Assembly: GCA_003155695.1 (NCBI GenBank)
Contig: PMDZ01000008.1
Span: forward strand, 39,362-103,361
Length of the DNA: 64,000 bases
Direction of reading: 5' to 3'
DNA from: Candidatus Nomurabacteria bacterium
GTDB lineage: Bacteria > Patescibacteriota > Minisyncoccia > Phycocordibacterales > UBA9973
Below, one piece after another: positions 14,364 through 59,531 of this stretch. Numbering within the stretch: position 1 is the stretch's first letter; the number at the start of each line of letters is the position of its first letter. Both the position numbers and the translations under genes were made by a program. The notes under the pieces were generated by a model. The model did no database searches. It had not been told where the DNA came from and saw only the letters and a list, made by a program, of their open reading frames with translations.

Positions 14364-14366
14364 TTT

Positions 14367-15230: not shown

Positions 15231-15252
15231 TTTAAAGGTCAGACATTATTAG

Positions 15253-15492
<240 letters not shown>

Positions 15493-15595
15493 TATTCTGA
15501 AGTTCGGTGTTTCGACTACAATCGGAACATCGCGTTCTGAATATTATTCAGAGAAAATTCTTAATTCGTAATTATTAATTGTTAATTTTTTTAAA

Positions 15596-16087: not shown

Positions 16088-16089
16088 GT

Positions 16090-16497: not shown

Positions 16498-16517
16498 TAA
16501 ATTAATTAGCAAATTAT

Positions 16518-18020: not shown

Positions 18021-18033
18021 GTTACATCAAAAC

Positions 18034-18095
18034 ATTCTTTTCTTCGGGTCCTCGGATGAGGGAGGACGAGTAGCCAGACCAGCTCAGAAAAGAAC
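18034..18095 (+). repeat. hairpin motif copy 2 (core GTCCTCGGATGAGGGAGGACGAGTAGCCAGAC; outer stem ttcttttcttcgg / cagctcagaaaagaa)
   Basis: Lies between atpA and atpG, ~40 nt upstream of the atpG ATG. Confidence 0.7.
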
Positions 18096-18120
18096 ATTTT
18101 GATTCCGCTAAACATAATAT

Positions 18121-19065: not shown

Positions 19066-19110
19066 TTAAAATTATTATCAATATTATAAACAGCTTCACA
19101 AATTATATTC

Positions 19111-20543
<1,433 letters not shown>

Positions 20544-32254: not shown

Positions 32255-32806
32255 TTATCGAGTGACACAGATTTTTGCTGCACCTGGAACAGCTGTTTCA
32301 TCAGCTGCTTTATTTGCACACACTGTAATCCTTCCTGTTGGATCGACACCAACATCATAACCAATGTATGGCGCATCTGCAGGAAGAATAGCTGGGTCTA
32401 TTGGTAATGTTGCAACATATGTTGGAACTAAACATCCAAGGTCACCTGATTCTGCTGTTGTAACTGAAGTACGAGCAGTAGAGTTTATCTTTTCGGTTGC
32501 TACACCAACAGCTGCTGAAGGAAGTGGATTGCAGAAATAATCAGTTCCTCCAACTCCTGCAACTGCACCTATATTATACTTACCAGCAAATATTCCTTTA
32601 TTATCTGCAATACGTTGACCGATAGCATTTAAGATCGTATTAACAGCAGCCTGACGCTGTGTATTTCGAGCTTGAGCGAATTGCTTAGCAGGATTGATTG
32701 CAATGATAACGATGGCTGCTAAAATGGCAATAATACCGATAACGACCAAGATTTCAATAAGAGTAAAACCCTTATTTTGCAAACTTTTTAAACTTAATTT
32801 CTTCAT
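32255..32806 (-). CDS. pilA: type IV major pilin (PilA-like)
   Basis: Prepilin class III signal: KGFTLIEILVVIGIIAILAAIV.. with the G|FTLIE cleavage/methylation motif. 183 aa, last gene of the pilus operon. Confidence 0.8.
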   Translation of the reverse strand: MKKLSLKSLQNKGFTLIEILVVIGIIAILAAIVIIAINPAKQFAQARNTQRQAAVNTILNAIGQRIADNKGIFAGKYNIGAVAGVGGTDYFCNPLPSAAVGVATEKINSTARTSVTTAESGDLGCLVPTYVATLPIDPAILPADAPYIGYDVGVDPTGRITVCANKAADETAVPGAAKICVTR

Positions 32807-32877
32807 AAAAAATTCTTTTTAATCTAATAATAATATCGACCATACTATAACTTATTCCGTATCTGTCAAGTGGAAAA

Positions 32878-35800
32878 CTAATTTGCCGTTGGCACCTCAT
32901 GCCAGGAATTCGGGTCAAAATTGAGGTCAGGTGGCGGAGGTGGCGGAGGAATATCGTCGTTGTTTAAAATGCAAACACGTGTTTCTCCTGCTACAATATT
33001 GCCCAGCGAACCAGAAGATGAACAAGTTGCCCCAGGGGTAAATATATAACCGCTCATGCTGTTTTCAGTGACATTATATGCTCCTGGGTCTACGGTAACA
33101 GAAGTACCTGCGCTACTTCCGGCAAATGAAGTTTGCGACGGACTATCTCCGGTTACTTTTACGGTGAAATTTGATTCTGTTTTACTGCCTCCATTATTGT
33201 TATTGACTTTCGTCATTATCATGAGTGTCCCTTTTGTAGGTGGGTCAGGTGGTGTGACAATTTGATTCGAAGGACAAACTCTTTTACCAATATCGGTAAA
33301 AATACCAGCCATATCTGCCGAGGTAGGTGAGATATAGAAATTGTCTCCGTCGGTATTTTCCGTTGCAGTGTCAATAGTTGTTGTAGAATAATAAACTCTG
33401 GCTTGTAACCAATCCAAATTAGTGACAGCATTGCTGTTACATCCAATACCCGGATCAATATCTTGCACACGAACGCGGAAGTTGCTGTTGGAAAAATCTC
33501 CTGGGGCCCAAGTTCGATACCAATTATCAGTCGAACCACCGAAACTAGGTAATTGAGTAAGTGTACTAGTTAAAGTTTGAGTTTTCTGTGGGCTTACCCA
33601 ATGACTACCGCCATCGTAAGATAAGTCCACGCCTAACTGGCAGGTAGTGCTCAGTGTTGTCGGAGTACTGTAACTTACCGTCAAATACATTTGCGTCACT
33701 CTCGGAACAGATGTGCCGTTGCTGGTTTTTTGGACGCCAAACTTGGTCGTCCAGTTGTTGACTTCGGAAACAGTCCAAGCCGAACCAGTCAAAGGATTGA
33801 TAGTCATAGGGCCGTTGTTGTATTGATAGGTAGCGTAACTGGTAGATAAACTATGGCCATTGTCATTGGTCTGATTGCTGCCATTTTCCGTTATTAACTG
33901 CATGGTGGCACTGCTGCCGTTATAACTTTTGGCTACGACGTTCAAAGTCACGGAGTTGACAGTGGCATTAGATGGAACGCCCGCTCCGGCAAAAGCAAAA
34001 GTTTGTTTGTCGGCTTCATCTATGTAGGTAGTATCTCCGTCATTGCCGTTGACCGCATTAACTGCACTGCCGGTATTGGCTAGCCAGTAATTGTATGAGC
34101 CGGGGGCAGTGGGAGTGAGGTTGGAAGGGACTCCAGGAATTGCATAAAAAACATTAACCGGTATCCAATCAAGGGAAATAGTGCGAGAGCTGGATGATGA
34201 ATTAGCAGTAATCCTAACTCTGAAATTAGTGCTGCTTATATCAGAGATTGACCAGGTATGTCCCCAGTTATCAGTAGAACCACCAAGTGTTTTATTATTG
34301 GTATCGTTGGTACTTTCTGTCGACTCATTTTTTTTCGAAGTCCAAGTTGTACCACCATTCCATGAAAGTTCTACATCCACACTATTTGTCCCAGATGTAC
34401 TATCAAGCCACCAATCGGGTCGCACCTGGATTCCTGTTATAGACGCACCTGCAGGAAGCGATGGCATAGTGTATGTAAAACGATTACGATAATTATTTTT
34501 CGCAGTCGCAGCAGAAGAACCACCATCTGAATAAGCATTAGTTGGATTATTAAAACCAGTACCGTCTGCTGATTGTCCAGAAGGCGAAATATAACCAGTG
34601 CTGCCTGATGTGCTATAACTCACAACCAACCACATTTGCGTCACTCGAGGAATCGAAGCGCCATTGTTGGTCTTTTGAACACCAAATTTAGTCGTCCAAT
34701 TGTTGACTTCCGAAACAGTCCATGCCGAACCGGTTATAGGATTTGTGTTCATTGTCCAGCTATAGGGACTGTAGCTTGCAGTCAAACTATGACCGCTATC
34801 ATTAACCGGTGTGCCACCGTTTTCCGCAATTAATCTCATGGTGGCAGTGGTTCCATTAAAACTTTCTGCCACCGCATTAAGAGTCACAGAGTTGATAGTA
34901 ACACCAGCAGGTACGTTTGCTCCCTGAAAAGCAAAAGTTTGATTGTCTGCTTCATCTATATAGGTAGTATCATTATCACTGCTGCTGATTGCATTAACTG
35001 CACTACCGGTATTGGCTGACCAATAATTGTAAGAGCCGAGGGCAGCCGGGGCGAGATTGGGAGTGTTTGTAACAAGAGGACTATCGGTCACCGAAGCCAC
35101 TGCTTTAGCTTCTATTCCATTTATAATAGACCCGGAAGGAATTGTCGGGATATTAAAATTATAATATCTTTGCATGTGGTTTCCCGTATCTGTAGCTGAA
35201 CTACCGCCACTTCCGTAGGCACTTGTCGGAGAAGACCAACCGGTACCACTATCAACACTATTACTTGAGGGTGATAAAAATCCAGTATCATTAGGAGTTG
35301 TAATATAATTTACAGCGGAATTGGTTGCAAGCGACGCAAGAAAAGTCAGCCCGGAAGTATCACCAAAATGAATGGTGTAGATTTGCGTCGGAATGTTATC
35401 CGGTGCCTTGCCCGCACCAGTAGCAGATTTTGCGGCAGTCGCAGCGCTAGTAGCGGCATCAAGAGCGGTTTGATTTACAGCATAACCATCAGCTAATTTT
35501 CCTCCCGGTTCATTTGCTCCTCCATCCGAAACCAGAATCAATACCTTAGCTTTTCCGGCTATATGGTATGAGGTATTATTTAACTCCGCGTCGGCTTTCG
35601 AAATTACTGCACTGAGATTTGTAAATGCGTACTGTATGGGTATACCCAAAAAGAAAGTAGTGACATTTTGTAAAGCATTTCCAATAGTTGTCGGTAAATT
35701 ATTGTAGTTGCTACTCAAATGGGAAACAATTTCCGCACTCGTATTATTGGCATCTGACTGCGTTAACCATAGCTTGGCCACATCGGCAAAATGTCCAACA

Positions 35801-36906
35801 CTGATTTGTGGATGAGGAGTAAGAACACTGTAAAGTGTAACTAGTGAATTTGCAGCTGCTGCTTCATCATTGATCCAATCTGTTCTATACGTGGATTGAT
35901 TCATTGGATCAGTGTAAAACATACTACTGGTGCGGTCCAGCATCATCACAGTATCGGCACAGGTTGGTGCCGGAGGAACCAGATCATCAAAATTTATGAT
36001 ACAAGTTTTATTTTGCCCGAGAGTCATGGTAATATTTCCACTGGAATTACAGTCATAACCCCATGATGATGCACCGTAACCTGAAAGAGTTGTCGCCGAA
36101 ACCGTGTGGCCTCCGGCAGTGACAGTTTTTGGTTGGCCGAGTGTTACTGAAACTCCGTCAATAAAAAGAGGAAAATCGCTTGGAAGTTTATTCCCGCTAT
36201 CATTATTTGTTACATTGGCTAAGACGGTAAGAGTCGTAGTTATATCATCATAAGTAATCGTGCAAAATTTAATTTCGCCGGCAATAACATTCCCCGAACA
36301 ATTACTGCCGATATTCATTGAGTAATTCGAGAGCGTACTGCCATTAACGCTGAATGGGCCGGGTTGAACCGATACAATCACTCCGGATTCTGAACCATCG
36401 AAAGGATCAACCGGATTGACAGCGCTGACGTTCATCGTAAATTCATTCGCTTGTTTTGTTCCACTACTATCATTTATCACATGTGTCGTCACAAAAAGAG
36501 TACCGGTTGTTGGCGCTGTCGGTATAGAAGTTAAATGAAGGTCATGTATCGCCATTGCCATATCAAGATTGGCATAGGAATTTCGAACGACTGCTTGTGT
36601 TTTAACAGTCACAAGTCCTGGAGGGAAATTGACCAGAATCGGGAATATATGACATGAACCTTCATCTTTTGTTATTGTTACATCACCAACATAAGTCGGG
36701 TCAGTGAGCAGGGTAGCCAGTGCTTGTTCGGCGCACCCTTCAGCCAAGTCATTTGCTTGTTCTTTGGCTTCGGTTCCAAGGACATTAAAACGTGAGGACC
36801 AACCGGAAGAACTGGCTTTTACCGCCATAACCAAAAGGATTAGCGAAATTATAATGGTTGCCATCAAAGCTATATATCCTCCTTGTTTTTTATTATTGTG
36901 GTTCAT
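32878..36906 (-). CDS. giant (1342 aa) pilus-associated adhesin: PilX-N-like membrane anchor, VWA domain, repeated beta-rich modules, poly-Pro C-terminus
   Basis: The N-terminus MNHNNKKQGGYIALMATIIISLILLVMAVKASSSGWSSRF fits the PilX_N pattern. The VWA MIDAS motif is MLDRTSSMF.. with VSDGGANEPG. Two ~150-aa internal repeats are present (..GSYNYW.ANTGSAVNA.. TGSAWTVSEVNNWTTKFGVQKT..). Ends with PPPPPPP. Confidence 0.65.
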   Translation of the reverse strand: MNHNNKKQGGYIALMATIIISLILLVMAVKASSSGWSSRFNVLGTEAKEQANDLAEGCAEQALATLLTDPTYVGDVTITKDEGSCHIFPILVNFPPGLVTVKTQAVVRNSYANLDMAMAIHDLHLTSIPTAPTTGTLFVTTHVINDSSGTKQANEFTMNVSAVNPVDPFDGSESGVIVSVQPGPFSVNGSTLSNYSMNIGSNCSGNVIAGEIKFCTITYDDITTTLTVLANVTNNDSGNKLPSDFPLFIDGVSVTLGQPKTVTAGGHTVSATTLSGYGASSWGYDCNSSGNITMTLGQNKTCIINFDDLVPPAPTCADTVMMLDRTSSMFYTDPMNQSTYRTDWINDEAAAANSLVTLYSVLTPHPQISVGHFADVAKLWLTQSDANNTSAEIVSHLSSNYNNLPTTIGNALQNVTTFFLGIPIQYAFTNLSAVISKADAELNNTSYHIAGKAKVLILVSDGGANEPGGKLADGYAVNQTALDAATSAATAAKSATGAGKAPDNIPTQIYTIHFGDTSGLTFLASLATNSAVNYITTPNDTGFLSPSSNSVDSGTGWSSPTSAYGSGGSSATDTGNHMQRYYNFNIPTIPSGSIINGIEAKAVASVTDSPLVTNTPNLAPAALGSYNYWSANTGSAVNAISSSDNDTTYIDEADNQTFAFQGANVPAGVTINSVTLNAVAESFNGTTATMRLIAENGGTPVNDSGHSLTASYSPYSWTMNTNPITGSAWTVSEVNNWTTKFGVQKTNNGASIPRVTQMWLVVSYSTSGSTGYISPSGQSADGTGFNNPTNAYSDGGSSAATAKNNYRNRFTYTMPSLPAGASITGIQVRPDWWLDSTSGTNSVDVELSWNGGTTWTSKKNESTESTNDTNNKTLGGSTDNWGHTWSISDISSTNFRVRITANSSSSSRTISLDWIPVNVFYAIPGVPSNLTPTAPGSYNYWLANTGSAVNAVNGNDGDTTYIDEADKQTFAFAGAGVPSNATVNSVTLNVVAKSYNGSSATMQLITENGSNQTNDNGHSLSTSYATYQYNNGPMTINPLTGSAWTVSEVNNWTTKFGVQKTSNGTSVPRVTQMYLTVSYSTPTTLSTTCQLGVDLSYDGGSHWVSPQKTQTLTSTLTQLPSFGGSTDNWYRTWAPGDFSNSNFRVRVQDIDPGIGCNSNAVTNLDWLQARVYYSTTTIDTATENTDGDNFYISPTSADMAGIFTDIGKRVCPSNQIVTPPDPPTKGTLMIMTKVNNNNGGSKTESNFTVKVTGDSPSQTSFAGSSAGTSVTVDPGAYNVTENSMSGYIFTPGATCSSSGSLGNIVAGETRVCILNNDDIPPPPPPPDLNFDPNSWHEVPTAN

Positions 36907-36907
36907 A

Positions 36908-37384
36908 TTATTCTCTTAAATAAGTTCTAAAATTAAATGGCTTATCTCCGATAAGAAAATTTACCGAAACAGATGGGGGCCTACCGTTTGCACTGGCTGT
37001 ATATGAAAATTTAACATTCGAAACTGGATATCTGTCACTATTTAACTGTATCGGTACACCAACGCCACGAGCAATAGTCATAATAGTGCCATTGCCACTT
37101 ATGACAAGGGGACTCTGTGCACCTAAGTCCGTTCTGGTTATGGTAACCGTATCACCACTTGCGGAGACGGTCGCATCGGATGCGCCGGTAAGAGCCCAGT
37201 TGATTTTACGATTAAGGAAAATTCCTTCTTCTTGTATTCCGGCGGCTGCAACATTATGATTACTTCCTTCAACAAGATTATATGTTCCAACTACAGCTCC
37301 GGTCATAAGTAAGCCGAAAAGAGCAATGTATATCATCGTTTCCATCAATGTAAATCCTTGTTGATTTTTTATCTTTTTTATCAT
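36908..37384 (-). CDS. minor pilin / pseudopilin
   Basis: QGFTLMETMIYIALFGLL prepilin N-terminus. 158 aa. Confidence 0.6.
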   Translation of the reverse strand: MIKKIKNQQGFTLMETMIYIALFGLLMTGAVVGTYNLVEGSNHNVAAAGIQEEGIFLNRKINWALTGASDATVSASGDTVTITRTDLGAQSPLVISGNGTIMTIARGVGVPIQLNSDRYPVSNVKFSYTASANGRPPSVSVNFLIGDKPFNFRTYLRE

Positions 37385-38946
37385 GGTGTGTATATTACTC
37401 CCAACTTATCGGTTGTTAAGTCTTGGCTAATGGCATAAATCCAATCTCCATCTATATCAAATCCAAGAGGGGCTAAGTGGGGAAAACTATAACTTGTAAA
37501 ACGACCGACATTCAATGTTCCTGTCCAAGTAGAATAATCGGAATCCCAAACTTGAAATTCTTGTCCACTTTTGCTTGTTTCTATATATGCATATTTACCT
37601 GATACCTCAATATTTGTTATGCTGGCTCCGACTTCACCTTGTTCGGATTCAGGGGTTAAAGAACTTTCCGGGTTAGTAACATCAAATACATAAAGTTCTG
37701 GACCTCCGGTATTTGATTGACGCCCGAAATATAAATTATTACCCAAAAGAGAAAGACTAAGACCATCTTGACTACCAGGAAGGTCAACTGAATTAAGTTC
37801 CGTTATTGTATCTCCGGTCACATCTAAAATGCCGAGTTCTTTTAAGTCGGAATCAGCAGCAAGAAAAACTAATCTATGGGTAACACCGGAAATTTTTTGG
37901 TCGCGGACAATTATATCATTTACCGTACGGTCAAGTTTAAAACCATTTCCTATTTCGGTTGGAATGGTCGGCGTAGAAATATTGAAAATATGAAATTCGT
38001 TTCCCGAAGTATAGCGAGTTGTCATATATAAACGACCTCCATAAACAAACAAATGCCATCCTTGCGGAGATGAACCCAGAGGGTCAACATTTTGGAGGTC
38101 ACGTTGCGCAACAAGTGTTGGAGTACTTGGGTCTGTCACATCAATAACGGCAAGTTGTTTGGTTGTCGCATTTACGGCCACGAAAGCATAAGTTCTTCCG
38201 GTAGCCAAGTCTTCCTCAACGTCAACAGCATTTAATTTTACCGGAACCCCGAGAACTTTTACAATATCTGTCGGTGAACTAACCAGAACAGGATTTTGAC
38301 CTACCGCTTCCGGGATATCATATATGGAAAAATATGGACTTATATTACTTGTTGTATAAATCTTTTTATGAAGCACATCAATACCAGTAAATTGCTTCCC
38401 TGGAGCAAATGGTAATGACCCTATACTTTCCGGTGTATTATTCTCCCAATCGCCACTCGGTTGATTTAAAACACAATCACCCCCGCGGGCAATAATTTCC
38501 GGGGTATTCGTGAGGTAAGTGAAAAGTTTTGTTGTCGTTGTTGGATAACTGGCTACTTGCCATTCTACTTTGGCTTCCACATATTTTGAGCAAGAAGATA
38601 AATCAGTAATATTTTTTTGAACATAATAGCACAATCCGCCGGCTATACATGAAGCGTCAGCTGAGTCGGAAGGATCTTTTGACACAGTCAAAGGCGAAGA
38701 TACCGCTTGATAAAAATCTTGTTTTATAAGAGAACGTAAATCTTCAAGCGTAGTCTTTGCTTTATAAAGCGCTTCGTTGGCAGTTTGCGAGGTTATTCCC
38801 CAATATTGGGCCGAAAAATTCGCATTTACCGCTCCAACAAGAACAATACAAATAAGAGCAAAAGCAATCATCAGTTCAATTGTTGAAAATCCCGATGTTT
38901 GATAATTGTAAATTTTTTTATTTTTACCAACTAATTTTTCCTTCAT
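37381..38946 (-). CDS. large prepilin-like protein with LVIVD-repeat beta-propeller
   Basis: SGFSTIELMIAFAL prepilin signal. Repeated ..LAVIDVTDPS.., ..LYVFDVTNPES.., and ..LGILDVTGD.. segments are typical of LVIVD repeats. Confidence 0.55.
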   Translation of the reverse strand: MKEKLVGKNKKIYNYQTSGFSTIELMIAFALICIVLVGAVNANFSAQYWGITSQTANEALYKAKTTLEDLRSLIKQDFYQAVSSPLTVSKDPSDSADASCIAGGLCYYVQKNITDLSSCSKYVEAKVEWQVASYPTTTTKLFTYLTNTPEIIARGGDCVLNQPSGDWENNTPESIGSLPFAPGKQFTGIDVLHKKIYTTSNISPYFSIYDIPEAVGQNPVLVSSPTDIVKVLGVPVKLNAVDVEEDLATGRTYAFVAVNATTKQLAVIDVTDPSTPTLVAQRDLQNVDPLGSSPQGWHLFVYGGRLYMTTRYTSGNEFHIFNISTPTIPTEIGNGFKLDRTVNDIIVRDQKISGVTHRLVFLAADSDLKELGILDVTGDTITELNSVDLPGSQDGLSLSLLGNNLYFGRQSNTGGPELYVFDVTNPESSLTPESEQGEVGASITNIEVSGKYAYIETSKSGQEFQVWDSDYSTWTGTLNVGRFTSYSFPHLAPLGFDIDGDWIYAISQDLTTDKLGVIYTP

Positions 38947-39385
38947 GATTTATTGATATTACTGCTGTAATATTACGATTTGGGTCTATCATGGTTATAT
39001 CCGTATCCTCAGCATCGCCGCTTAATTGCTCGAAAGTAATTTCCGTCGGTGATGTTGGACTGAATGTCACTTCGTAGGAAGATTTCGTATCTTCATCTTT
39101 TGAGCTATCTCTCTCATCGTAAGAATTACCTTCAAAAATAACATATCCCTCATATCCCGCCGGATTGATAGCGACACCGTGTTGCTCTTGGTCTATATTA
39201 TTAAGAGCATCGGCTCGGGCAGTTTGGAGAGCAAGACCAAGATTATTTACTTCGGAACGGAAAGCATCTCCTCGGAAACTATTTATATCTATAAATAACG
39301 ACATCGTTGCGATTACACCGACAAGCCCGATGACAACCAGCATTTCCATTAACGTGAACCCTTTTTCTAATTCAACTTTTTTCAT
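38924..39385 (-). CDS. minor pilin / pseudopilin
   Basis: KGFTLMEMLVVIGLVGVIA prepilin N-terminus. The start is taken at the MKKVELEKGFTL ATG rather than the extended ORF. Confidence 0.6.
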   Translation of the reverse strand: MKKVELEKGFTLMEMLVVIGLVGVIATMSLFIDINSFRGDAFRSEVNNLGLALQTARADALNNIDQEQHGVAINPAGYEGYVIFEGNSYDERDSSKDEDTKSSYEVTFSPTSPTEITFEQLSGDAEDTDITMIDPNRNITAVISINHEGKISW

Positions 39386-39389
39386 CTTT

Positions 39390-40637
39390 TTATCCGTGTA
39401 AATTTTGAGTAATACTATAAATCGGTGTGATAATTGAAATAGCGATAAAGCCGACAAGGACACCCATGAAAATCATCAGCGCAGGTTCGATAAGATTCGA
39501 AATATTTTTTGTAAATTCTTCCACTTCGCTTTCGTAAAGTTCGGAAAGATAAATGAAAGAATTTGATAAGTTTCCGGAGCGTTCTCCGACTGAAATTATC
39601 TGAGTTAGGACTTCCGGGAAAAGGTTTCTATTTTTTGCAAGATAAACTGATATTCGTTCTCCTCGATTGACAGCTTCGGACATAGCTTCAAATTCTCTTT
39701 TGTATACTAGATTTCCTGATACTCTTGTTGTTATTTCTAGCGTTTCGCCGAAAGTCACACCACTTTTCAAAAGTAATCCAATCGTACGAGTAGTATTTGC
39801 CAAATTGTAATGTTTTATAACCTCTCCGATCATCGGAATTTTCATCAATAATTTATCGAAATAGAAGCGGAATATTTTAACTTTTTTTAATGTAAAAATA
39901 AAAACAAGAATGAAAATTACAATGCCGAGAACTAGTTCAAGTCCGTGATGAATCAAGAAATCACTGAAAGCCATAATTATCCTTGTTGAAAGGGGAAGAG
40001 TCATGTGCAAACTGGAAAAGACCGGTAAAATTTTTGGGAAAAGATAAACCATCAGGAATCCGGTAATTCCAAGAGTAGCAAAGGTGACAACAGCCGGATA
40101 AACAAAAGCACCTTTAACTTTTTTCTGTAAAGCGTTTTTCTTTTTTAATTCTTCGGCAAGATAGGTGAGATTATCGCTTAAAATTCCTGCAGATTCTCCG
40201 AAGGAAATAATATTTATTGAGAAATCACCAAATATTTTGTGAAATTTTCCAAGACTAGTGGACAGATTGTGCCCACTTGAAACATCATTAATAACCGTAT
40301 CCAAAATGGTAATGAGACCTTTCTGCCTGGTTTGTTCCCGAATCATCGTTAGACTTTCAAGTATTGGTATACCTGCTTTCAAGAGGAATGATAACCTTTT
40401 TATGAAAAAAGTCTGTTCTTTCAATGTCATTTTGAAGAAAGAGGAACTCTTAAAATTACTAAACATTTTCGAAAAAGATGAAGTGCTTTTTTTGGGAGAT
40501 TTTATATTTGATAATTCTTTATTTTTTTCAAATCTGTTTGTTGTATTATTGAAAAACAAAGTAGTGGATACTCCTCCTTTTTGAACGGAACTTTTCAAAG
40601 CGGAACTATTATTCTTTATGTATTTTTTTATTTCCAT
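39390..40637 (-). CDS. pilC: type IV pilus inner-membrane platform protein (GspF/PilC family)
   Basis: Two T2SSF-type repeats with 3-4 TM helices. 415 aa. Confidence 0.8.
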   Translation of the reverse strand: MEIKKYIKNNSSALKSSVQKGGVSTTLFFNNTTNRFEKNKELSNIKSPKKSTSSFSKMFSNFKSSSFFKMTLKEQTFFIKRLSFLLKAGIPILESLTMIREQTRQKGLITILDTVINDVSSGHNLSTSLGKFHKIFGDFSINIISFGESAGILSDNLTYLAEELKKKNALQKKVKGAFVYPAVVTFATLGITGFLMVYLFPKILPVFSSLHMTLPLSTRIIMAFSDFLIHHGLELVLGIVIFILVFIFTLKKVKIFRFYFDKLLMKIPMIGEVIKHYNLANTTRTIGLLLKSGVTFGETLEITTRVSGNLVYKREFEAMSEAVNRGERISVYLAKNRNLFPEVLTQIISVGERSGNLSNSFIYLSELYESEVEEFTKNISNLIEPALMIFMGVLVGFIAISIITPIYSITQNLHG

Positions 40638-40651
40638 ATTATTAAATATTA

Positions 40652-41875
40652 TTATTCGTGGATTACACGTAGAATTTCTTCTATTGTAGTGATACCTTCT
40701 TCGACTTTTTTAAAGCCATCTTCGAACATGGTAGTCATGCCCCGACTGACGGCTAAATTTTTAATTTCGCTTGCTGAAGCTTTCCTCAATATCGCTTCTC
40801 GGATAACTTCGTCAGCGACCAAAACTTCATTTATACATACTCGACCCGAGTATCCGGTATTGTTGCATTTGTCACAACCTTTACCTTTAAAATATACTTG
40901 GCCGTCATACATCAACTTTCCAATTAATGTATCTTGTAAACTTTCCTTAAGGGCTGGGGTCATCTTATGTTTTTCTTTACAATGTGAACAGATTTTTCGT
41001 ACCAAGCGTTGGCCAATAGCGATTGAGACTGTTGAAGCAACTAGATATTCCTCGACACCCATATCGAGCAAGCGTGGCAAGGTTGTAGCTGCATCGCTTG
41101 TATGCAGAGTTGAAAGGAGCAAATGCCCAGTAAGTGCTGTATTTACGGCAATATTTGCCGTTTCGGCATCACGAATTTCCCCGACCATAACAATGTTCGG
41201 GTCCTGCCTCAATATTGAACGTAGCCCATTAGCGAAAGTAAGCCCAGAATGGGAATTAACTTGTATTTGCTCAATATCGCCAATTGAATATTCTATCGGG
41301 TCTTCAATCGTAATTATCGAAACATCGGGATGATTCAACATTTTGATAAGAGTATAAAGAGTCGTAGTTTTCCCGGAACCGGTCGGCCCAGTAGCGAGAA
41401 TCATTCCGCTTGATTTTTTCATTGCAGCGATTATTTTTTTTGTATCACTATCACTAAAGCCTAAATTCTCCAAACTGAAATTTTCCGCTTTATCGGAAAG
41501 CAATCGCAAAACGGCATTCTCGCCGTGATATGTCGGAACAATAGAAACACGAAGGTCAATGAATTCATTCGTCACCGGAAAGATATATCGAAAGCGCCCG
41601 TCTTGCGTAGCTTGATGTTCATCGGTACGAAGTCTGGAGAGAATTTTTATTCTTGAAATTATTTCTCCATGGATATTTTTGGGGAGGGGATGAGAATCTT
41701 CAAGAACACCATCAATACGAAAACGCAAACGAACAGCTTTCTCTTGTGGGTCTAAGTGAATATCAGACGCATTTATTATAGACGCATGTTTTATAATCTC
41801 ATCAATTAAGTTAATAATTGAAAGATTTACTCCGTGAGCCAATTCTTTTTCTATAATCGCGTTAAATTCGTTCAT
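40652..41875 (-). CDS. pilB: type IV pilus assembly ATPase (GspE/PilB family, short form lacking N-terminal domains)
   Basis: Walker A GPTGSGKTT, Asp box, His box and the C-terminal tetracysteine C..C...C..C. Confidence 0.85.
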   Translation of the reverse strand: MNEFNAIIEKELAHGVNLSIINLIDEIIKHASIINASDIHLDPQEKAVRLRFRIDGVLEDSHPLPKNIHGEIISRIKILSRLRTDEHQATQDGRFRYIFPVTNEFIDLRVSIVPTYHGENAVLRLLSDKAENFSLENLGFSDSDTKKIIAAMKKSSGMILATGPTGSGKTTTLYTLIKMLNHPDVSIITIEDPIEYSIGDIEQIQVNSHSGLTFANGLRSILRQDPNIVMVGEIRDAETANIAVNTALTGHLLLSTLHTSDAATTLPRLLDMGVEEYLVASTVSIAIGQRLVRKICSHCKEKHKMTPALKESLQDTLIGKLMYDGQVYFKGKGCDKCNNTGYSGRVCINEVLVADEVIREAILRKASASEIKNLAVSRGMTTMFEDGFKKVEEGITTIEEILRVIHE

Positions 41876-50365: not shown

Positions 50366-52753
50366 ATGAAAAATTATACAAAACCGGTGTTTGTGAAAGT
50401 AGGAATGTTTATTGTTGTTATGTCACTTTTTATTGGTTCATCAGCTGTATCGGCTGCTGTCAATGTCGTTCCGAATGCTAATCTTGAGACCCAATCAAGT
50501 GGTAACCAAAATATTCCTGACCAATGGGAAAAGGGAACCAGCGACTTAGGTGACGTTGTTACTTACACATACCCAGTAACTAGTGCTCCAGTATCCGATA
50601 TTTCAAGTGGTAATGCCGCAAAAATTGAAGCTACTTCTTTTACTTCAGATAAGGGCGCAAAATGGTATTTCACTCCGGTTCCTGTAACTCCTGGTGAGCG
50701 ATATTCTTTCAGCGATTCATATATTGCTACATCCAATACTGATTTAGTTGGAGTTTTCTGTACAGATATTTATCAAAATAATTGTACTTATGATACAACT
50801 CATTCTGTATCTGCAACACCAACTGATACATGGGAACAAGCAACCGCTTCTTTTACGGTACCGATAGGTAAAACATATATGACGGTGTTTCATCGTATTC
50901 AAGTAGCTGGTTCACTAACTATTGATAATTATAATTTAACACTCATACCTCCACCATCTCCATTTGCATCCGGATTCGTAACACTTACTTTTGATGACGG
51001 ACTATTGTCACAATTTAATAATGCTCTATCTGTACTAAATGCCGGAAATGCAAAAGCAACTTTCTTCATTCCAACCCATTTTATTTCTGGTTTTTCTATT
51101 GTTAATCCTTCGTTTGAAAATGCGCCTGGAGGTAATCCAATTGATTGGACTCAATCGGGGGGAACATCTTCTTCAACATTTACTCTTTCTTCTGATTCTC
51201 ATAATGGTGGTGCTTGGGCAGGACAAGTCAGTGATACTGTGACTACTTTAAGTAATGCTGCTTGGTCTTTCACTCCGGTAACTGTTATTCCTGATACTAT
51301 TTATTCTTTTAAAGAATATTATAAGAGTACAGCAAATTCAGAACTCGTTGCGAAAGTAACTTTAGACGATAACTCTACTACAATAACTGCTGACGTTGTG
51401 GATAGTGGTGGCGCAACTTTAGGTATTAGCGTACCGCTTCCTGCATCTGCTGATTACACTCAAACTCAAGCATATTTCTATATGCCTACTAATGCTAAAT
51501 CAGTCACAATATTAAATAAATTAACTAGCGCTGGAACTCTTACTATCGACGATGTGTCACTTGGCAGAGAAGGATATATGACGAGTGACCAAGTGCTATC
51601 ACTTCAATCAGCAGGAAATGAAATCGGTGGCCATACACAAACACACCCAGACCTCACAACAGTTACACCAACAGATCTGACAAATGAAATTAGTGGTGGT
51701 CGCCAGGACCTTATTAGTAATGGCATAACTGCTCCAGTATCGTTTGCGTATCCATTTGGCGCATACAATACAACAATTCAAGACGCTCTCACAAGTGCAG
51801 GTTACACATCTGGTCGTACCGTTTTGCCATCTGGATTTAATGATTTATCTACTCCAAAACTGTCTCTCTTCTCTCAATCAATAGATGCAAATACTACACT
51901 AGATCAAGTAGCTAACTGGATTGCTGAAGCCAAAGCAAATAAGAGCTGGTTGATTTTAACATTCCATGATATACAAAATGATATTACAGGAACTCCATAT
52001 GGAACGACACCACAAATCCTTGCTGGAATTATTTCAGACGTAACATCAGAAGGTCTTCCTATAAAAACTGTTAGCGAGGGAGTTGAATTAATGGGTAATG
52101 TAACTCCACCAACTGACCCAGTTTGTACGCTTCCTCAAGTATTAGAGAATCATGTATGTGTTACTCCAGTAGTTACTGACCCAGTTTGTACACTTCCTCA
52201 AGTATTAGAGAATCATGTATGTATCACGCCGACAAGATGCGCATACAATTCGGACCTGTTAGCAAGCGACCCACTCTGTGTTGCTCCGGCAATGTGTCAA
52301 TACAATTCTAACTTGTTAGCGAGCGATAAAGATTGTGTAGCTCCGAAAACACCAACGCATCATATATCGTCAGGTTCTATTCCGATGTCTACCCAAGGTA
52401 GTGTTCTCGGCGCCAAGACTTCTTGTGGAATTTATATAGATAAGTTTTTAGGAATGGGACTTAAGGATAATGATGTGGAAGCTGTTGAAAAAATTCAAAC
52501 TTTCTTAAATGACAATATGTCTGCAGGACTTGTTGTTGATGGATTTTTTGGTGCTATGACCAATGATGCACTTAAAGCCTTCCAGCTTGCGCATGCAGAC
52601 AAAGTCTTGGAACCTTGGGGTCTGACTGCTCCAACCGGCATATTCTACTTAACCACTCAAACGGCAGTGAATAATATAATGTGTCCGGCCTTAGATTTGC
52701 CAATCCCAGTACTCACTCCGATAGCTCTAAATCCATTGTTTCCCAAAAAATAG
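50366..52753 (+). CDS. secreted CE4 (NodB) polysaccharide deacetylase with N-terminal CBM-like domain, a second CBM-like domain inserted into the catalytic domain, and a C-terminal PG-binding module
   Basis: NodB motifs are TFDDG; H-T-Q-T-H; AYPFG; L-T-F-H-D. About 215 aa separate motif 1 from motif 2. The C-terminal 130 aa are paralogous to the ends of the 22797 and 25084 proteins. Confidence 0.7.
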   Translation: MKNYTKPVFVKVGMFIVVMSLFIGSSAVSAAVNVVPNANLETQSSGNQNIPDQWEKGTSDLGDVVTYTYPVTSAPVSDISSGNAAKIEATSFTSDKGAKWYFTPVPVTPGERYSFSDSYIATSNTDLVGVFCTDIYQNNCTYDTTHSVSATPTDTWEQATASFTVPIGKTYMTVFHRIQVAGSLTIDNYNLTLIPPPSPFASGFVTLTFDDGLLSQFNNALSVLNAGNAKATFFIPTHFISGFSIVNPSFENAPGGNPIDWTQSGGTSSSTFTLSSDSHNGGAWAGQVSDTVTTLSNAAWSFTPVTVIPDTIYSFKEYYKSTANSELVAKVTLDDNSTTITADVVDSGGATLGISVPLPASADYTQTQAYFYMPTNAKSVTILNKLTSAGTLTIDDVSLGREGYMTSDQVLSLQSAGNEIGGHTQTHPDLTTVTPTDLTNEISGGRQDLISNGITAPVSFAYPFGAYNTTIQDALTSAGYTSGRTVLPSGFNDLSTPKLSLFSQSIDANTTLDQVANWIAEAKANKSWLILTFHDIQNDITGTPYGTTPQILAGIISDVTSEGLPIKTVSEGVELMGNVTPPTDPVCTLPQVLENHVCVTPVVTDPVCTLPQVLENHVCITPTRCAYNSDLLASDPLCVAPAMCQYNSNLLASDKDCVAPKTPTHHISSGSIPMSTQGSVLGAKTSCGIYIDKFLGMGLKDNDVEAVEKIQTFLNDNMSAGLVVDGFFGAMTNDALKAFQLAHADKVLEPWGLTAPTGIFYLTTQTAVNNIMCPALDLPIPVLTPIALNPLFPKK

Positions 52754-52802: not shown

Positions 52803-55133
52803 ATGAAAAATCATATGAAATTGATTCCAATAAAACTAGGAATGTTGGTTGCTTTAATGGCGTTTTTGGTCGGCCCATCAAAAATATTCGCTTTAAGTTC
52901 CAGCAACCTTGTTCCAAACCCTCTTCTTGAAACTCCGTCGTCGGGTGATCCAAATATTCCCGACCAATGGGCAAAGGGGTATATTGACGCTAGCGATGTT
53001 GTTACTTACACATATCCAGTAACTAGTGCTCCCACATCCGATATATCTAGTGGTAATGCCGCAAAGATTGTCGCCACTACCGTTGTCTCCGGTACCGATG
53101 CCAAATGGTATTTTACTCCGGTTCCCGTAACTCCAGGCCAGCGATATGTTTTCAGTGATTCATATATATCCACAGTTGGTACGGATTTGGTTGCGTCATT
53201 CTGTACCGATATATTTCAAAATGGTTGCAGCTATGATACTTCTCAATCCATACCGGCAACACCAACCGATGTGTGGAAACAATCTTCGGCTTCATTTACG
53301 GTACCGATAGGCAAAACATATATGACGGTATTTCACCGCATACAAACAGCTGGTTCACTAACTATTGATAATTCTAGTTTGATACTCGTTCCACCACCAT
53401 CTCCATTTTCATTTGGATTTGTAACACTTACCTTTGATGACGGACTATTATCACAATTTACCAATGCCTTACCTGTCTTAGTTGCCGGAAGCGCAAAAGG
53501 AACTTTCTTTATTCCGACTCACTTTATTTCCGGTTTTTCTATTATTAATCCATCGTTTGAAAATGCAAATGGTATTAATCCAACCAACTGGTCTCATTCC
53601 GGTTCTTTAACTGCGACATACACATATTCTTCGGACGCCCATAACGGCACAAAGAGCGGACAAGTTGCTTCAACAACAGCTCTTAGTAATGCAGCCTGGT
53701 CTTTCGCACCGGTAACTATTATTCCCGATACTATTTATTCTTTCCAGGAATACTACAAGAGTACGGCAAGTTCGGAACTTGTTGCGAAAATGACTTTGAA
53801 TGACGGTACAACAATAAATGCCGATGTTGTGGATAGTGTGGGCAATACATTAGATAATAAAGTAACACTGCCTGCTGCCTCAAGCTATACTTCAACTCAA
53901 GCATATTTTTATATGCCACTTAACGCAAAATCAGTGACAATATTAAATCAGTTGACCGGTATCGGTACTTTAACTATTGACGATGTAACTCTGGGCAGAG
54001 AAGGGTATATGACCAGTAATCAAGTATCAACACTTCAAACCAAAGGAAATGAAATTGGCGGTCATACACAAACTCATCCAGATCTTACAACACTTACAAG
54101 TACCGATATGACGAATGAAATAAATGGTGGACGCCAGGATCTTCAGAGCAATGGTATAACTCCGGTTCTTTCATTCGCATATCCATTCGGTGCATATAAT
54201 ACAGCTATTCAGCAAGCACTCACAAATGCAGGTTATTCATCTGGTCGTACCGTTTTGCCATCCGGATTTAATGATTTATCTACTCCAAAATTATCCCTTT
54301 TCTCTCAAACAATAGATGCCAATACAACACTCGGTCAAGCGGAAAATTGGGTTGCTGAGGCAAAAGCAAACAAGAGTTGGTTGATTTTGACTTTCCATGA
54401 TATACAGAGCGACCTCACCAATCTTCCGTATGGAACAACACCAAAAAATCTTACGGATATTATTTCCTATATAAATACCGAGGGTATGCCGATAAAGACT
54501 ATCAGTGAGGGTGTTGCGTTGATGGGGGGGACACCGACTCCAACAGATGTCTGCCCGAACGTAACTGGTATGCAAACAACAGGTCCTTGCGCCGATACAC
54601 TCTGTGTGGCACCAAAAACCTGGAGTATATTAACTCAAACTTGTGTTGCTCCAGCTCCAGTTGATGTCTGCCCGAACGTAACCGGAGTTCAAACAACAGG
54701 TCCTTGCGCTGACACTCTTTGTGTGGCACCAAAAACTTGGAATATGACAACTCAAACTTGTGTTGCTCCAGCTCCAGTTGATGTCTGTCCGAATGTAACA
54801 GGAGTTCAAACAAAAAGTCCTTGCGCTGACACTCTTTGTGTATCACCAAAAACTTGGAATATAACAACTCAAACTTGTGTTGCTCCGGTTGATGTCTGTC
54901 CGAATGTAAGAGGAATACAGACAAAAGGTCCTTGCGCTGACACTCTTTGTGTGGCACCAAAAACTTGGAGAATATTAACTCAAACTTGTATTGCACCGGC
55001 TTCGGCGGATATTTGTCCCAAGGTAAAAGGAGTTCAAACAACAGGTCCTTGTGCCGATACTCTTTGTGTGGCACCAAAAACTTGGAGTATATTAACTCAA
55101 ACCTGTATCAAGTGGATATTTAGCTCAAAGTAA
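52803..55133 (+). CDS. paralogous CBM/CE4 deacetylase with C-terminal 5x tandem 39-aa Cys repeats (no PG-binding module)
   Basis: The N-terminal ~560 aa are collinear with the 50366 product, with the same NodB motifs. The C-terminus is DVCPNVTGVQTTGPCADTLCVAPKTW..TQTCVAPAPV repeated five times. Confidence 0.7.
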   Translation: MKNHMKLIPIKLGMLVALMAFLVGPSKIFALSSSNLVPNPLLETPSSGDPNIPDQWAKGYIDASDVVTYTYPVTSAPTSDISSGNAAKIVATTVVSGTDAKWYFTPVPVTPGQRYVFSDSYISTVGTDLVASFCTDIFQNGCSYDTSQSIPATPTDVWKQSSASFTVPIGKTYMTVFHRIQTAGSLTIDNSSLILVPPPSPFSFGFVTLTFDDGLLSQFTNALPVLVAGSAKGTFFIPTHFISGFSIINPSFENANGINPTNWSHSGSLTATYTYSSDAHNGTKSGQVASTTALSNAAWSFAPVTIIPDTIYSFQEYYKSTASSELVAKMTLNDGTTINADVVDSVGNTLDNKVTLPAASSYTSTQAYFYMPLNAKSVTILNQLTGIGTLTIDDVTLGREGYMTSNQVSTLQTKGNEIGGHTQTHPDLTTLTSTDMTNEINGGRQDLQSNGITPVLSFAYPFGAYNTAIQQALTNAGYSSGRTVLPSGFNDLSTPKLSLFSQTIDANTTLGQAENWVAEAKANKSWLILTFHDIQSDLTNLPYGTTPKNLTDIISYINTEGMPIKTISEGVALMGGTPTPTDVCPNVTGMQTTGPCADTLCVAPKTWSILTQTCVAPAPVDVCPNVTGVQTTGPCADTLCVAPKTWNMTTQTCVAPAPVDVCPNVTGVQTKSPCADTLCVSPKTWNITTQTCVAPVDVCPNVRGIQTKGPCADTLCVAPKTWRILTQTCIAPASADICPKVKGVQTTGPCADTLCVAPKTWSILTQTCIKWIFSSK

Positions 55134-55172: not shown

Positions 55173-55217
55173 TTGCCTGTTGGGTAATTATAATTTTTGT
55201 TATATAATATATCGAGC

Positions 55218-56447
55218 ATGGCAGATAAAAAAATAACAGATATAAAAGCGGAACAAATACTAGATTCAAGGAAAAATCCGACTCTCAAAGTATCGGTTTA
55301 CGTTGGCGATATAATTGGAAGCTTTGAAGTTCCATCTGGCGCCAGTACCGGTAAATATGAAGCTTGCGAACTTCGTGATGGAGAAGGCGGGAAAAGTGGT
55401 GTTTTAAATGCAATTAATAAAATAAACACCATAATAAAACCTATTTTACTTGGAATAGAAGTAGACCAACAGAAGCAAATTGACGAGATAATGATAAAAC
55501 TCGACGGCACATCTCAAAAAACAAATTTGGGTGGCAACAGTATGATTGGCGTAAGTATTGCTTGTGCGAAGACTGCCGCTAAAGTCTCGGGAATGGAAGT
55601 TTATGAATATTTAAAGACTCTTGCTTCAATAACTTCATCTCGTAAAGAACCATTTTTATATTTTAACCTTATAAACGGGGGCAAACATGCCGCCACACGA
55701 TTGGCTTTTCAAGAATTCCATATTGTCCCCCAAACAGGAACATCAAGTGAAAGTGTCAGAATCAGTCAAGACATTCAAAAAAAATTAGATGAAATTATTC
55801 TAAAAGAGCTCGGTGGACCAATAAAAAAAGGAGACGAAGGAGGAGTAGCACTCGATGTGGAAGATATATTTGTGCCGCTTAAACTTTTACAAAAAGCCGT
55901 CACTGAGCTTGTATATACGGATAAAATAAAATATGCCCTAGACGTTGCGGCTAGTTCTTTCTATGACCACGATGCCGGTATCTACAAATTCATGAAAAAA
56001 GATTGGACAAAAGACGATATGATAAATCTTTACGAAAAAATTTGTCACGATTTCCCGATGATTTCCATAGAAGACCCATTTGATGAGGAAGATTTTGAAA
56101 GTTTTTCTAAATTGCAGGAAAAAATAAGCGATATAAAATTAATTGGCGATGATTTGACTGTGACCAATACAGTAAGGCTCCAAAAAGCCATAAATGAAAA
56201 AAGTATAAAAGGAATAATAATTAAACCAAATCAAATCGGAACTTTGACCGAGACACTCGAAACGATGAAGCTTGCCCGAAATAATAATATTGATTGTATT
56301 ATCAGCCACCGAAGCGGAGAAACAATGGATGATTTCATTGCTGACCTTGCCTGTGCCTTTGGTTGTTTCGGTATTAAAGCCGGAGCATTGGGACCACAAG
56401 AGCGAAACGTGAAATATGAGAGAATTATTAAAATAACAGAAAAATAA
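55218..56447 (+). CDS. eno: enolase
   Basis: [23 protein letters not shown], and IKPNQIGT blocks. The ATG at 55218 is preferred over 55197. Confidence 0.85.
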
Positions 56448-56448: not shown

Positions 56449-57237
56449 ATGCCATCAAAAACATATATAATCGCAACAATTGGGCCTTCGTGCGACAAAA
56501 AAGAAGTTATCACCGGCATGATAAAGCATCGTATGGACATGGCCCGTCTCAATTTTTCATGGGGAACCTACGAGTGGCATACTAGTGTCATAAAAAACAT
56601 TCGAGATGTCGCTAAAGAAAATAATCTTTCCATTCCCATTATTCAAGATTTGTCTGGGCCTCGAGTTCAAACCGGTGGTGAACATCATTTTGGCGGAGAC
56701 AAAGAGATAATTACAGAAAAAGATAGAGAGAATTTAATCTTTGGGATAGAACAAGGTTTAGAATATGTTGCATTATCTTTTGTCGGCCAAGCTTCCGATA
56801 TTATTGAATTAAAACAATTAATAAAAGAAAAAGGCGGCAACCAAAAGATTATCGCCAAGATAGAACGCAAGCTTGCTTATGAAAACTTAAGTGAAATTAT
56901 AAAAGAATCGGACGGCATTATGGTTGCTCGCGGAGATTTAGGAAATGAATTTCCTCTTGAAGAAATTCCTTTTGTCCAACATCATATTATAGAGGAATGT
57001 AAAAAAAACGGTAAAATGGTCATTGTTGCGACTCAGATGCTTTTATCAATGGTTCATAGTCCTACACCGACACGCGCCGAAGTTTCGGATGTGGCATATG
57101 CAATATTGGACGGTGCCGATGGAGTTATGCTTTCGGAGGAATCGGCTAAAGGGAATTACCCGGTGGAAGCAGTCGAAATGATGGAAAAGATTGCTTTGGT
57201 CGCCGAGAAACATATTAATAAAGATAAAATAGGATAA
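56449..57237 (+). CDS. pyk: pyruvate kinase-like protein, A (TIM-barrel) domain only; lacks B and C domains
   Basis: [15 protein letters not shown]...GPRVQTGG and [15 protein letters not shown]...[31 protein letters not shown] match pyruvate kinase core motifs. Total length is only 262 aa. Confidence 0.6.
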
Positions 57238-57243: not shown

Positions 57244-58212
57244 ATGTCAAAACAAATTTATATTACAAGAAACATTCCGGAGACAGGTCTAAAATTATTA
57301 AGAGAGAAGGGGATTGCTTTTGATATCGGTAAATCAAAACTCTCTCCTACAAAAAAGGAAATTATCAAAGCTCTAAAGAAAAAGCCTTATGATGGTGTCA
57401 TTTCTTTTTTGACGGATAAGATTGATAAAGAAGTTTTTGAAGCTTGCCCGACAGCCAAAGTGTATGCCAACTTTTCTGTCGGTTTTGATAATGTGGATAT
57501 TGATGAAGCCAAAAAAAGAAATATCTGTGTTTCAAATACGCCAGGCACAGCTTCTAATGCCGTAGCTGAGTTTACCATCTCTCTTATCCTTACATTGACT
57601 ACTAGAATTGATGAAGGAGATAGATTTATGCGTAAAGGCAAATATAAGGGCTGGGACCCGAATTTACTTATTGGGACAGATTTGAAAGGTAAAACCGTCG
57701 GATTGATAGGCGTCGGTCAAATAGGAACCGAAGTCGCGAAAATTTTACACTTTGGTTTTGGTTCAAACGTCATATACAGCGATATTGCTCCAAATCCAGT
57801 ACTGGAACAAATCACAGGTCCGACGAGAAAAGAAACTGCCGAAGTCCTTCGTGAAGCCGATATTGTTTCTCTTCATGTACCATTACTCCCAAGTACTCAC
57901 CATCTGATAAACAAAGAAGCTCTTGCGTCTATGAAAAAAAATGCATTTTTGATTAATACTTCAAGAGGCGCTGTGATTGACGAAAAAGCTTTGGTTTATG
58001 CCCTTCGAAATAATGTCATTCGCGCAGCGGCGATTGATGTCTATGAATTTGAACCAAAACTAACCAAAGGTTTGACCAAATTATCTAATATCGTCCTTAC
58101 TCCTCATATCGCCTCGGCTCGCCAATCGGTTCGTGACCTTATGTCCGAAGTCGCTGCCAAAAATATTATTTCCGTTTTAGAAACCGGAAAAGTAATTAAC
58201 AGCGTTTTTTAA
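57244..58212 (+). CDS. D-isomer-specific 2-hydroxyacid dehydrogenase (GhrA/SerA-like)
   Basis: Rossmann GLIGVGQIGTEVAK, with the catalytic R..E..H arrangement (..TSRG...D; ..TPHIAS). Confidence 0.8.
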   Translation: MSKQIYITRNIPETGLKLLREKGIAFDIGKSKLSPTKKEIIKALKKKPYDGVISFLTDKIDKEVFEACPTAKVYANFSVGFDNVDIDEAKKRNICVSNTPGTASNAVAEFTISLILTLTTRIDEGDRFMRKGKYKGWDPNLLIGTDLKGKTVGLIGVGQIGTEVAKILHFGFGSNVIYSDIAPNPVLEQITGPTRKETAEVLREADIVSLHVPLLPSTHHLINKEALASMKKNAFLINTSRGAVIDEKALVYALRNNVIRAAAIDVYEFEPKLTKGLTKLSNIVLTPHIASARQSVRDLMSEVAAKNIISVLETGKVINSVF

Positions 58213-59458: not shown

Positions 59459-59531
59459 TTCTAGAAACAATAAAAATCCCTTCGAATAGAGGGGATTTTT
59501 ATTTTAAATTTTTTAAAGCTATAATACCCAT

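Follow-up and report, generated by a model that had tools for sequence, protein, structure and literature searches.

In a 64,000-nucleotide stretch of the Candidatus Nomurabacteria contig PMDZ01000008.1 (the window), we identified a gene for a pyruvate kinase (PK) that is reduced to its A-domain barrel, with a short hairpin in place of the B (lid) domain and no C domain. This mini-PK is not an isolated oddity. Its form is widespread in one class of the candidate phyla radiation (CPR), the Paceibacteria, and its gene is under strong purifying selection. A role in turning phosphoenolpyruvate (PEP) into pyruvate is well supported by the residues that the protein keeps and by the genes that surround it, and ADP would most likely be the acceptor of the phosphoryl group. 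Taken as a whole, the evidence makes it fairly probable that mini-PK is a minimal, unregulated and probably K+-independent PK, which would convert enolase-derived PEP to pyruvate with ADP as acceptor.

The open reading frame (ORF) begins with ATG and encodes 262 amino acids. The initial annotation, made from the sequence, had read it as a PK of this length with neither a lid nor a C-terminal regulatory domain, and all of the motifs that it quoted are present in the translation. Profile searches agree with this reading: the PK barrel family PF00224 matches in two separate stretches (E=1.9e-82), the NCBIfam equivalog TIGR01064 (pyruv_kin) scores 336.3 bits, above its cutoff of 306.4, and Pfam finds no PK_C domain (PF02887) in the protein. 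Every narrower PRK model scores under its own cutoff, and public records accordingly name the relatives 'pyruvate kinase'. When mini-PK is aligned to Escherichia coli PykF, residues 3-76 correspond to PykF 2-75 and residues 88-251 to PykF 170-334; about 95 residues of the lid are therefore missing. The chain then stops where the PykF C domain would start, ending at residue 262, about 8 residues past the barrel. What replaces the lid is shorter than the ~25 residues first estimated: about 11 residues remain unaligned against PykF, and in an alignment of 155 sequences R72 through I88 span 17 residues, compared with ~98 in full-length PKs.

Structure prediction gives the same picture. The AlphaFold2 model is a complete (β/α)8 barrel (pLDDT 91.9, pTM 0.90) plus a β-hairpin with strands at residues 72-75 and 78-81, as assigned by DSSP, and it matches PK A domains. 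Top Foldseek matches to the model are PKs only, at TMq 0.87-0.94, 40-46% identity and an rmsd of 1.5-2.3 Å measured against PK chains with a disordered B domain; the best of them is Pseudomonas aeruginosa PykA (6qxl, TMq 0.94). Because the C domain is missing, the classical allosteric control of PK and its C-C tetramer interface are absent as well.

The active site contributed by the A domain is preserved. We compared 23 short-form cluster representatives with 132 full-length PKs and found its catalytic and ligand residues invariant or nearly so in both sets. PykF R32, N34, S36, D66, K220, E222, D246 and T278 correspond to R33, N35, S37, D67, K137, E139, D163 and T195 of mini-PK, and R209, E211, D214, S229 and E231 are also invariant or nearly so on both sides. 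The catalytic lysine and the glutamate and aspartate that bind Mg are thus in place, together with T195, whose rabbit equivalent (T327) we take to be the proton donor to enolpyruvate. With all of these residues retained, the gene is not a dead paralogue. Mini-PK also keeps the A-domain part of the adenine pocket, the TIGP strand T10-I-G-P13 (adenine-pocket residue assignments from PMC10058396 and PMC8835810).

What has been lost is the nucleotide clamp. In canonical PK, the lid closes over Mg-ADP, and in the rabbit enzyme the lid residues R119, K206 and D177 move by 7-10 Å as it does so; once closed, the lid touches the β-phosphate through R119, the ribose hydroxyls through K206 and a water on Mg-ATP through D177, and rabbit His77 bounds the adenine pocket (PMC8835810). 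The His77 position is His in 128 of the 132 full-length PKs and Trp (W38) in 18 of the 23 short forms. The position of rabbit E117 is taken by R72 and that of R119 by Q74, both at the start of the replacement hairpin, whose second strand carries a histidine, H79, that is present in 21 of 23 short forms and lacks an equivalent in full-length PKs. Conservation alternates along the two strands of this hairpin. Column entropies are 0 bits at R72, 2.09 at V73, 0.51 at Q74, 2.09 at T75, 3.15 at residue 77, 0 at H79, 2.53 at H80 and 1.66 at F81, against a mean of 1.26 for the protein, and the conserved set is R72, Q74, H79 and F81. In the model, these four residues are predicted to share one face of the hairpin. 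In canonical PKs, the residue at the position of R72 is directed into the cation site, and we therefore infer that the conserved face lines the active site.

The cation site itself points to a particular branch of the PK family. Glu117 and Thr113 have been tied to K+ dependence and Lys117 and Leu113 to K+ independence, the signature of the latter being a basic residue 117 with L113, Q114 and L, I or V at 120 (PMC8835810, PMC4284704). Mini-PK has L68 at position 113 and R72 at position 117, both of which fit this signature; position 114, by contrast, is S or P, and position 120 is polar or variable. Among the 132 full-length PKs, position 117 is Lys in 90, Arg in 24 and Glu in 16, and position 113 is mostly Leu; in the short forms, position 117 is Arg in 21 of 23, and position 113 is Leu or Val. 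These residues suggest that mini-PK derives from, or resembles, the K+-independent branch, and that the built-in positive charge of Arg117 probably replaces K+. The nearest full-length relatives of mini-PK are of the K+-independent type, with ~50-55% identity over the barrel. With K+-independent bacterial enzymes such as M. tuberculosis PK (PMC8835810) and P. aeruginosa PykA (6qxl), mini-PK shares the barrel, the catalytic residues, Leu113 and a basic residue 117. It differs from them in having no B domain (and thus no K206 or D177), Gln instead of R119, Trp instead of His77, Arg rather than Lys at 117, a new hairpin with an invariant His, and no C domain, effector site or C-C interface.

On this basis, we propose that PEP supplied by enolase would be converted to pyruvate at an intact A-domain site, in which Arg, Asn, Ser and Asp form the cation pocket, Glu and Asp bind Mg, Lys is catalytic and Thr donates the proton. 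The hairpin face bearing Arg72, Gln74 and His79 would be turned toward the active site and bind phosphate in place of the lost R119, K206 and D177; Trp38, standing in for His77, may stack on the adenine; and ADP would accept the phosphoryl group to give ATP. The pyruvate could next be reduced by the adjacent 2-hydroxyacid dehydrogenase. Replacement of the pocket histidine by a fixed Trp, rather than drift at that position, favors this proposal, as do the retained TIGP strand and the alternating conservation of the hairpin.

Several observations weigh against it. All three nucleotide-contacting lid residues are gone, with R119 replaced by Gln74 and K206 and D177 deleted, and where all 132 full-length PKs have Arg at the R119 position, 18 of the 23 short forms have Gln. 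The literature that we searched holds no characterized PK without a B domain. The orientation of the hairpin toward the active site comes from strand register and conservation alone, in a part of the model where pLDDT is ~75-80. ATP could also be obtained at the PGK step, so that ATP synthesis by mini-PK would not be strictly required, and full-length PKs do occur in other Patescibacteria.

The same losses give substance to a second reading, in which the open site converts PEP to pyruvate with no gain of ATP, handing the phosphoryl group to water, as a PEP phosphatase would, or to some other small molecule, for instance another nucleotide. R119, K206 and D177 are lost while the chemistry on the PEP side is intact, the genomic context demands just PEP as substrate and pyruvate as product, and the organism has genes for GAPDH and an F-type ATPase, which offer other ATP-handling routes. 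On this reading, lower glycolysis would no longer be coupled to the availability of ADP. A hydrolase, however, could do without any conserved substitute for the lid, whereas the clade has R72, Q74, H79 and W38 fixed and keeps the TIGP strand of the adenine pocket. Wasting the PEP phosphoryl group would be costly to a fermenter, and a fusion of glycerate kinase, enolase and mini-PK found in a relative (described below) would be easiest to understand if ADP from the kinase were re-phosphorylated. We therefore regard transfer to water or another small acceptor as a possibility, but a distinctly weaker one than ATP formation by a minimal PK.

Gene context constrains the carbon substrate. As the initial annotation had noted, mini-PK lies between enolase and a 2-hydroxyacid dehydrogenase, and the packing is tight: the enolase stop ends 1 nt before the ATG of mini-PK, and the dehydrogenase gene starts 6 nt past its stop. 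Two related loci that are 80% identical (L004 and L005) have the same order of enolase, mini-PK and 2-Hacid_dh. Enolase linkage is frequent but not universal, because in a third (L006, positions 10001..11782, from the Candidatus Paceibacteria metagenome-assembled genome La4_metabat2.065) mini-PK is followed by the same dehydrogenase at 75% identity, and no enolase was detected within 10 kb upstream. More divergent members reassemble the same module in other ways. One locus (L086, P0188) encodes a D-lactate dehydrogenase (D-LDH)-type 2-Hacid_dh, a DUF4147/MOFRL glycerate kinase, enolase and mini-PK; another (L087, P0214) has a 2-Hacid_dh followed by a single 1092-aa glycerate kinase-enolase-mini-PK protein; a third (L088, P0126) has His_Phos_1 (dPGM), mini-PK and enolase; a fourth (L090, P0163) has enolase and mini-PK as overlapping genes; and a fifth (L091, P0125) has a 2-Hacid_dh, a dPGM-mini-PK fusion and enolase. 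Further fusions are mini-PK-enolase (P0123), mini-PK-dPGM (P0128) and glycerate kinase-mini-PK (P0130), so that dPGM and mini-PK occur fused in both orders. None of the fusions is common (one or two members per 90% cluster), and read-through between neighboring genes could have produced some of them as artefacts; at several junctions, however, there is no internal Met, and even artefactual fusions would show adjacency. Enolase is thus the constant partner and 2-Hacid_dh a frequent one, and the entry enzyme varies between dPGM, which starts from 3-phosphoglycerate, and glycerate 2-kinase, which starts from glycerate. One additional fusion protein (P0122, 1051 aa) matches PF00224 in two stretches and carries an adenylate kinase domain (PF00406, E=5.6e-38); judged by its domains, it is possibly an ADP-supplying fusion.

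The dehydrogenases are informative in their own right. They are not one conserved orthologue: the enzyme in the window is GRHPR-like (glyoxylate/hydroxypyruvate reductase) and that of L086 is D-LDH-like, closest to fermentative D-lactate dehydrogenases, and the two are 34-38% identical. For the window enzyme, the best NCBIfam model is PRK13243 (295 bits, under the cutoff of 455), and the closest solved structures are the glyoxylate reductases 6bii and 2dbq and the glycerate dehydrogenase 2cuk. The simplest account of two non-orthologous 2-oxoacid reductases in one module is that its 2-oxoacid product is the same in both lineages, namely pyruvate, although the GRHPR-type enzyme of the window could act upstream instead, converting hydroxypyruvate to glycerate. 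A serine-glycerate route of that kind, in which hydroxypyruvate reductase and glycerate 2-kinase (MOFRL) feed 2-phosphoglycerate into enolase, has been described for Thermotoga. The L086 operon and the L087 fusion resemble it in joining 2-Hacid_dh, DUF4147/MOFRL kinase, enolase and mini-PK; they depart from it in that the L086 dehydrogenase is D-LDH-like rather than hydroxypyruvate-reductase-like, and the window locus has no glycerate kinase.

The invariant histidine of the hairpin and these fusion partners admit another route for the phosphoryl group, in which His79 would act as a carrier or acceptor and mini-PK as a PK-derived phosphotransferase, passing the group from PEP to His~P and on to a partner. 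That partner might be ADP on a fused or adjacent glycerate kinase, or a protein histidine such as the catalytic His of a fused or adjacent dPGM. Enzyme I and PPDK set the precedent, as their PEP phosphoryl group goes to a His and they have no nucleotide-clamping lid. In mini-PK, the histidine is part of the barrel chain itself, on its hairpin, and any role in phosphorylation would be conjectural; we consider such a relay very doubtful.

The HpcH/HpaI aldolases and citrate lyase β (PF03328), together with the PEP barrels of enzyme I and PPDK, belong to the same PEP/pyruvate superfamily as PK, and HpcH/HpaI-type barrels are lidless, ~250 aa long and stabilize enolpyruvate on a divalent metal. 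Oxaloacetate decarboxylation, moreover, is a nucleotide-independent side activity of PK. The size and lidless form of mini-PK resemble the HpcH/HpaI type and its lid contacts to nucleotide are lost, so the barrel might have turned to a different reaction of the enolpyruvate type within the superfamily, such as oxaloacetate decarboxylation or HpcH-like aldol or lyase chemistry. Similarity to these barrels is marginal, however. Some relatives of mini-PK match PF03328 weakly (E ~1e-5, below the cutoff), the window protein itself has no match at E<=0.01, and two full-length PKs (P0136 and P0261) give similar weak matches, which makes the signal unspecific. Mini-PK has 40-46% identity to bona fide PKs and keeps all PK-specific ligands of the PEP phosphate and the cation (R33, N35, S37, D67 and K137), and its partners are enolase, dPGM and glycerate kinase, with no oxaloacetate or aldol enzymes linked. 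Repurposing of the barrel is accordingly improbable. Our starting annotation had left open whether the protein was a minimal PK or a PK fold put to other use; linkage to enolase, dPGM, glycerate kinase and D-LDH, in operons and as fusions, favors a PK as far as the carbon substrate is concerned, and, with the lid contacts gone, ADP is no more than the likeliest phosphoryl acceptor.

Conservation across many genomes argues that the short form is a functional protein. At least 120 clusters came out of a first protein search, at 71-100% identity; their lengths run from 241 to 284 aa and lie almost entirely at 260-268 aa, and the named ones are Candidatus Paceibacterota. In total, we count more than 150 homologues of 258-284 aa, with names from Candidatus Paceibacterota, Parcubacteria, Taylorbacteria and Patescibacteria, so the relatives do share the short form. 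An exhaustive phmmer search over 1.84 billion representatives added further B-less clusters at ~46-55% identity (P0121, P0124, P0126, P0127, P0129, P0131, P0132, P0163, P0181 and P0188), and the short forms span at least 15 clusters at 50% identity. With a profile built from divergent members, the best 120 matches were again short, at 262-284 aa, under the names Paceibacterota, Parcubacteria, Taylorbacteria and Patescibacteria group. In a scan of our genome collection with the pattern PTRAEVSDV, the hits were mostly ordinary PKs and L006 was the sole mini form. Against the orthologues in L004 and L006, mini-PK has a dN/dS of 0.07-0.13.

This conservation bears on whether mini-PK could be a decaying or irrelevant remnant, or a scaffold for enolase, with the flux carried by a gene outside the window for a full-length PK, PPDK or PEPS. 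PK is patchy in the CPR (PMC7304191), full-length PKs are known from other Patescibacteria, and our evidence covers the 64-kb window. Within it, neither PPDK nor PEPS is encoded and a tblastn search with full-length PKs turns up no other PK-like sequence, which speaks for the minimal PK. Also set against a remnant are the low dN/dS, catalytic residues that are invariant across clusters of ~50% identity, the more than 150 intact homologues of like size, and the tight spacing in the operon, which resembles that of translationally coupled genes. No remnants of B or C domains flank the gene. We judge a remnant or scaffold highly improbable. Truncation, frameshift or a pseudogene as the source of the short ORF is ruled out by the abutting genes, the lack of B or C remnants in the window, the like-sized homologues and the low dN/dS. 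A separately encoded B or C domain nearby is likewise rejected: none was found by tblastn in the window or among the Pfam domains of the related loci examined.

No member of the clade defined by the GPR..H linker has Arg at the R119 position. A point neighbor-joining tree recovers this clade as monophyletic, but with a bootstrap of just 8/100, so a single origin rests on the shared linker signature and not on the tree. Positional orthology with full-length CPR PKs found no support: in six loci encoding them (L009, L014, L016, L027, L030 and L058), the ±10 kb around the gene contain neither enolase nor 2-Hacid_dh. Close linkage to enolase is thus a particular feature of the short clade. Two singleton clusters lack the lid in other ways. 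P0260 (377 aa) has a different linker and deletion, is the sole short form with Arg at the R119 position and has a PK_C domain, and P0247 (251 aa) has the whole GP-x-x-R loop deleted and a Glu at the D67 position. Their sequences suggest that the B domain was lost more than once.

Among described enzymes, a close parallel in architecture is a group of 340-352 aa PKs (NF005234/PRK06739; P0136, P0165, P0171 and others) that, like mini-PK, have no regulatory C domain. The C domain is missing in 11 of the 132 neighboring full-length representatives. These enzymes keep the ~98-residue B lid and R119, and mini-PK has neither; its score against NF005234 is 219.6 bits, under the cutoff of 564. We found no description of a natural PK without a B domain in the literature searched. 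A 'truncated pyruvate kinase' in PMC6997586 was considered as a precedent and set aside, being an engineered deletion, and Jaffe et al. 2020 (PMC7304191) scored PK in the CPR as present or absent only. PKs without a C domain are already modelled by NCBIfam, and we see in mini-PK a known enzyme with a new architecture.

A natural clade that has dropped the lid and its invariant Arg, kept the remaining active site and stayed in lower glycolysis offers a test of how far catalysis by PK needs the lid. If mini-PK makes ATP, it defines the minimal PK and would show that three residues on one face of a hairpin can do the work of a 100-residue domain. It would also provide a compact, effector-independent and probably K+-independent enzyme for engineering. 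If it makes no ATP, the last glycolytic step is wrong in estimates of energy yield for many Paceibacteria, since the name 'pyruvate kinase' is given to such genes automatically in databases.

Table 1. Features of the mini-PK locus, with positions in the window.
Feature	Position	Strand	Description
Enolase (eno)	55197..56447	+	Enolase_N + Enolase_C (Pfam); TIGR01060 411.9 bits (cutoff 300)
Mini pyruvate kinase	56449..57237	+	262 aa, A-domain TIM barrel only
R33-L-N35-F-S37-W38 motif	56545..56562	+	R33/N35/S37 = PykF R32/N34/S36, conserved; W38 at rabbit His77 position
D67-L68-S69-G-P-R72-V-Q74...H79...I88	56647..56712	+	K+-site loop plus lid-replacing β-hairpin
K137-I-E139	56857..56865	+	PykF K220 (catalytic Lys) and E222 (Mg ligand); invariant in 23/23 short and 132/132 full-length forms
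D163 in MVARGDLG	56935..56937	+	PykF D246 (Mg ligand)
T195 in ATQML	57031..57033	+	PykF T278, rabbit T327; invariant in 23/23 short forms
D-2-hydroxyacid dehydrogenase, glyoxylate/hydroxypyruvate-reductase type	57244..58212	+	Pfam 2-Hacid_dh + 2-Hacid_dh_C
Two co-directional ORFs, 306 aa and 88 aa	58260..59458	+	No family assignment; kept in L004/L005
Terminator-like hairpin, then T run	59469..59503	+	Candidate site; consensus match alone, such sites not enriched over shuffled sequence

The locus reads, in order, enolase, mini-PK, 2-Hacid_dh, the 306-aa ORF, the 88-aa ORF, the terminator-like hairpin and mgsA (Table 1). The two ORFs are probably the tail of the eno-pk-dh transcription unit, and they are absent beside the divergent mini-PKs of L086, L088 and L090; the hairpin is a candidate for the end of the unit. 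At the other end, a TTG start at 55197 gives an enolase of 416 aa, and the gene call on the source contig begins 7 codons later (55218) for 409 aa, a length that is plausible because the Enolase_N match begins at residue 13. Directly upstream of enolase lie two tandem paralogous genes for secreted proteins of ~780-795 aa (50366..52753 and 52803..55133, both +). The first ends in a repeat DPVCTLPQVLENHVCV, different from that of its neighbor, followed by a peptidoglycan-binding-like tail; the second has a polysaccharide deacetylase domain (PF01522) and about five C-terminal tandem Cys-rich repeats of the form VCPNVTG.QT.GPCADTLCVAPKTW..TQTC.

Elsewhere in the window, a central-carbon cluster (937..8239) encodes GAPDH, diaminopimelate epimerase (-), RpiB, Rpe, a split transketolase, a PfkB-family sugar kinase (-) and class II fructose-bisphosphate aldolase; the N-terminal and C-terminal transketolase genes overlap by ~80 nt, and the cluster fits the pentose-phosphate bypass of phosphofructokinase in the CPR (PMC7304191). 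An F-type ATP synthase operon with subunits a, b, alpha, gamma and beta follows at 14367..20543 (+), where a 280-aa antisense ORF over atpB (14288..15130) is probably spurious. A block resembling type IV pilus and type II secretion systems (32255..41875, -) encodes a T2SS-F platform protein, a T2SS-E ATPase, three pseudopilins with the N-terminal methylation motif, a 1342-aa SpaA-like prealbumin-domain protein and an LVIVD-repeat protein. Just ahead of it, a 254-aa protein (31306..32070, +) strongly matches PF11999, an ice-binding-like family (E=1.6e-74); the samples of origin carry the label of WOOD18 metagenomes.

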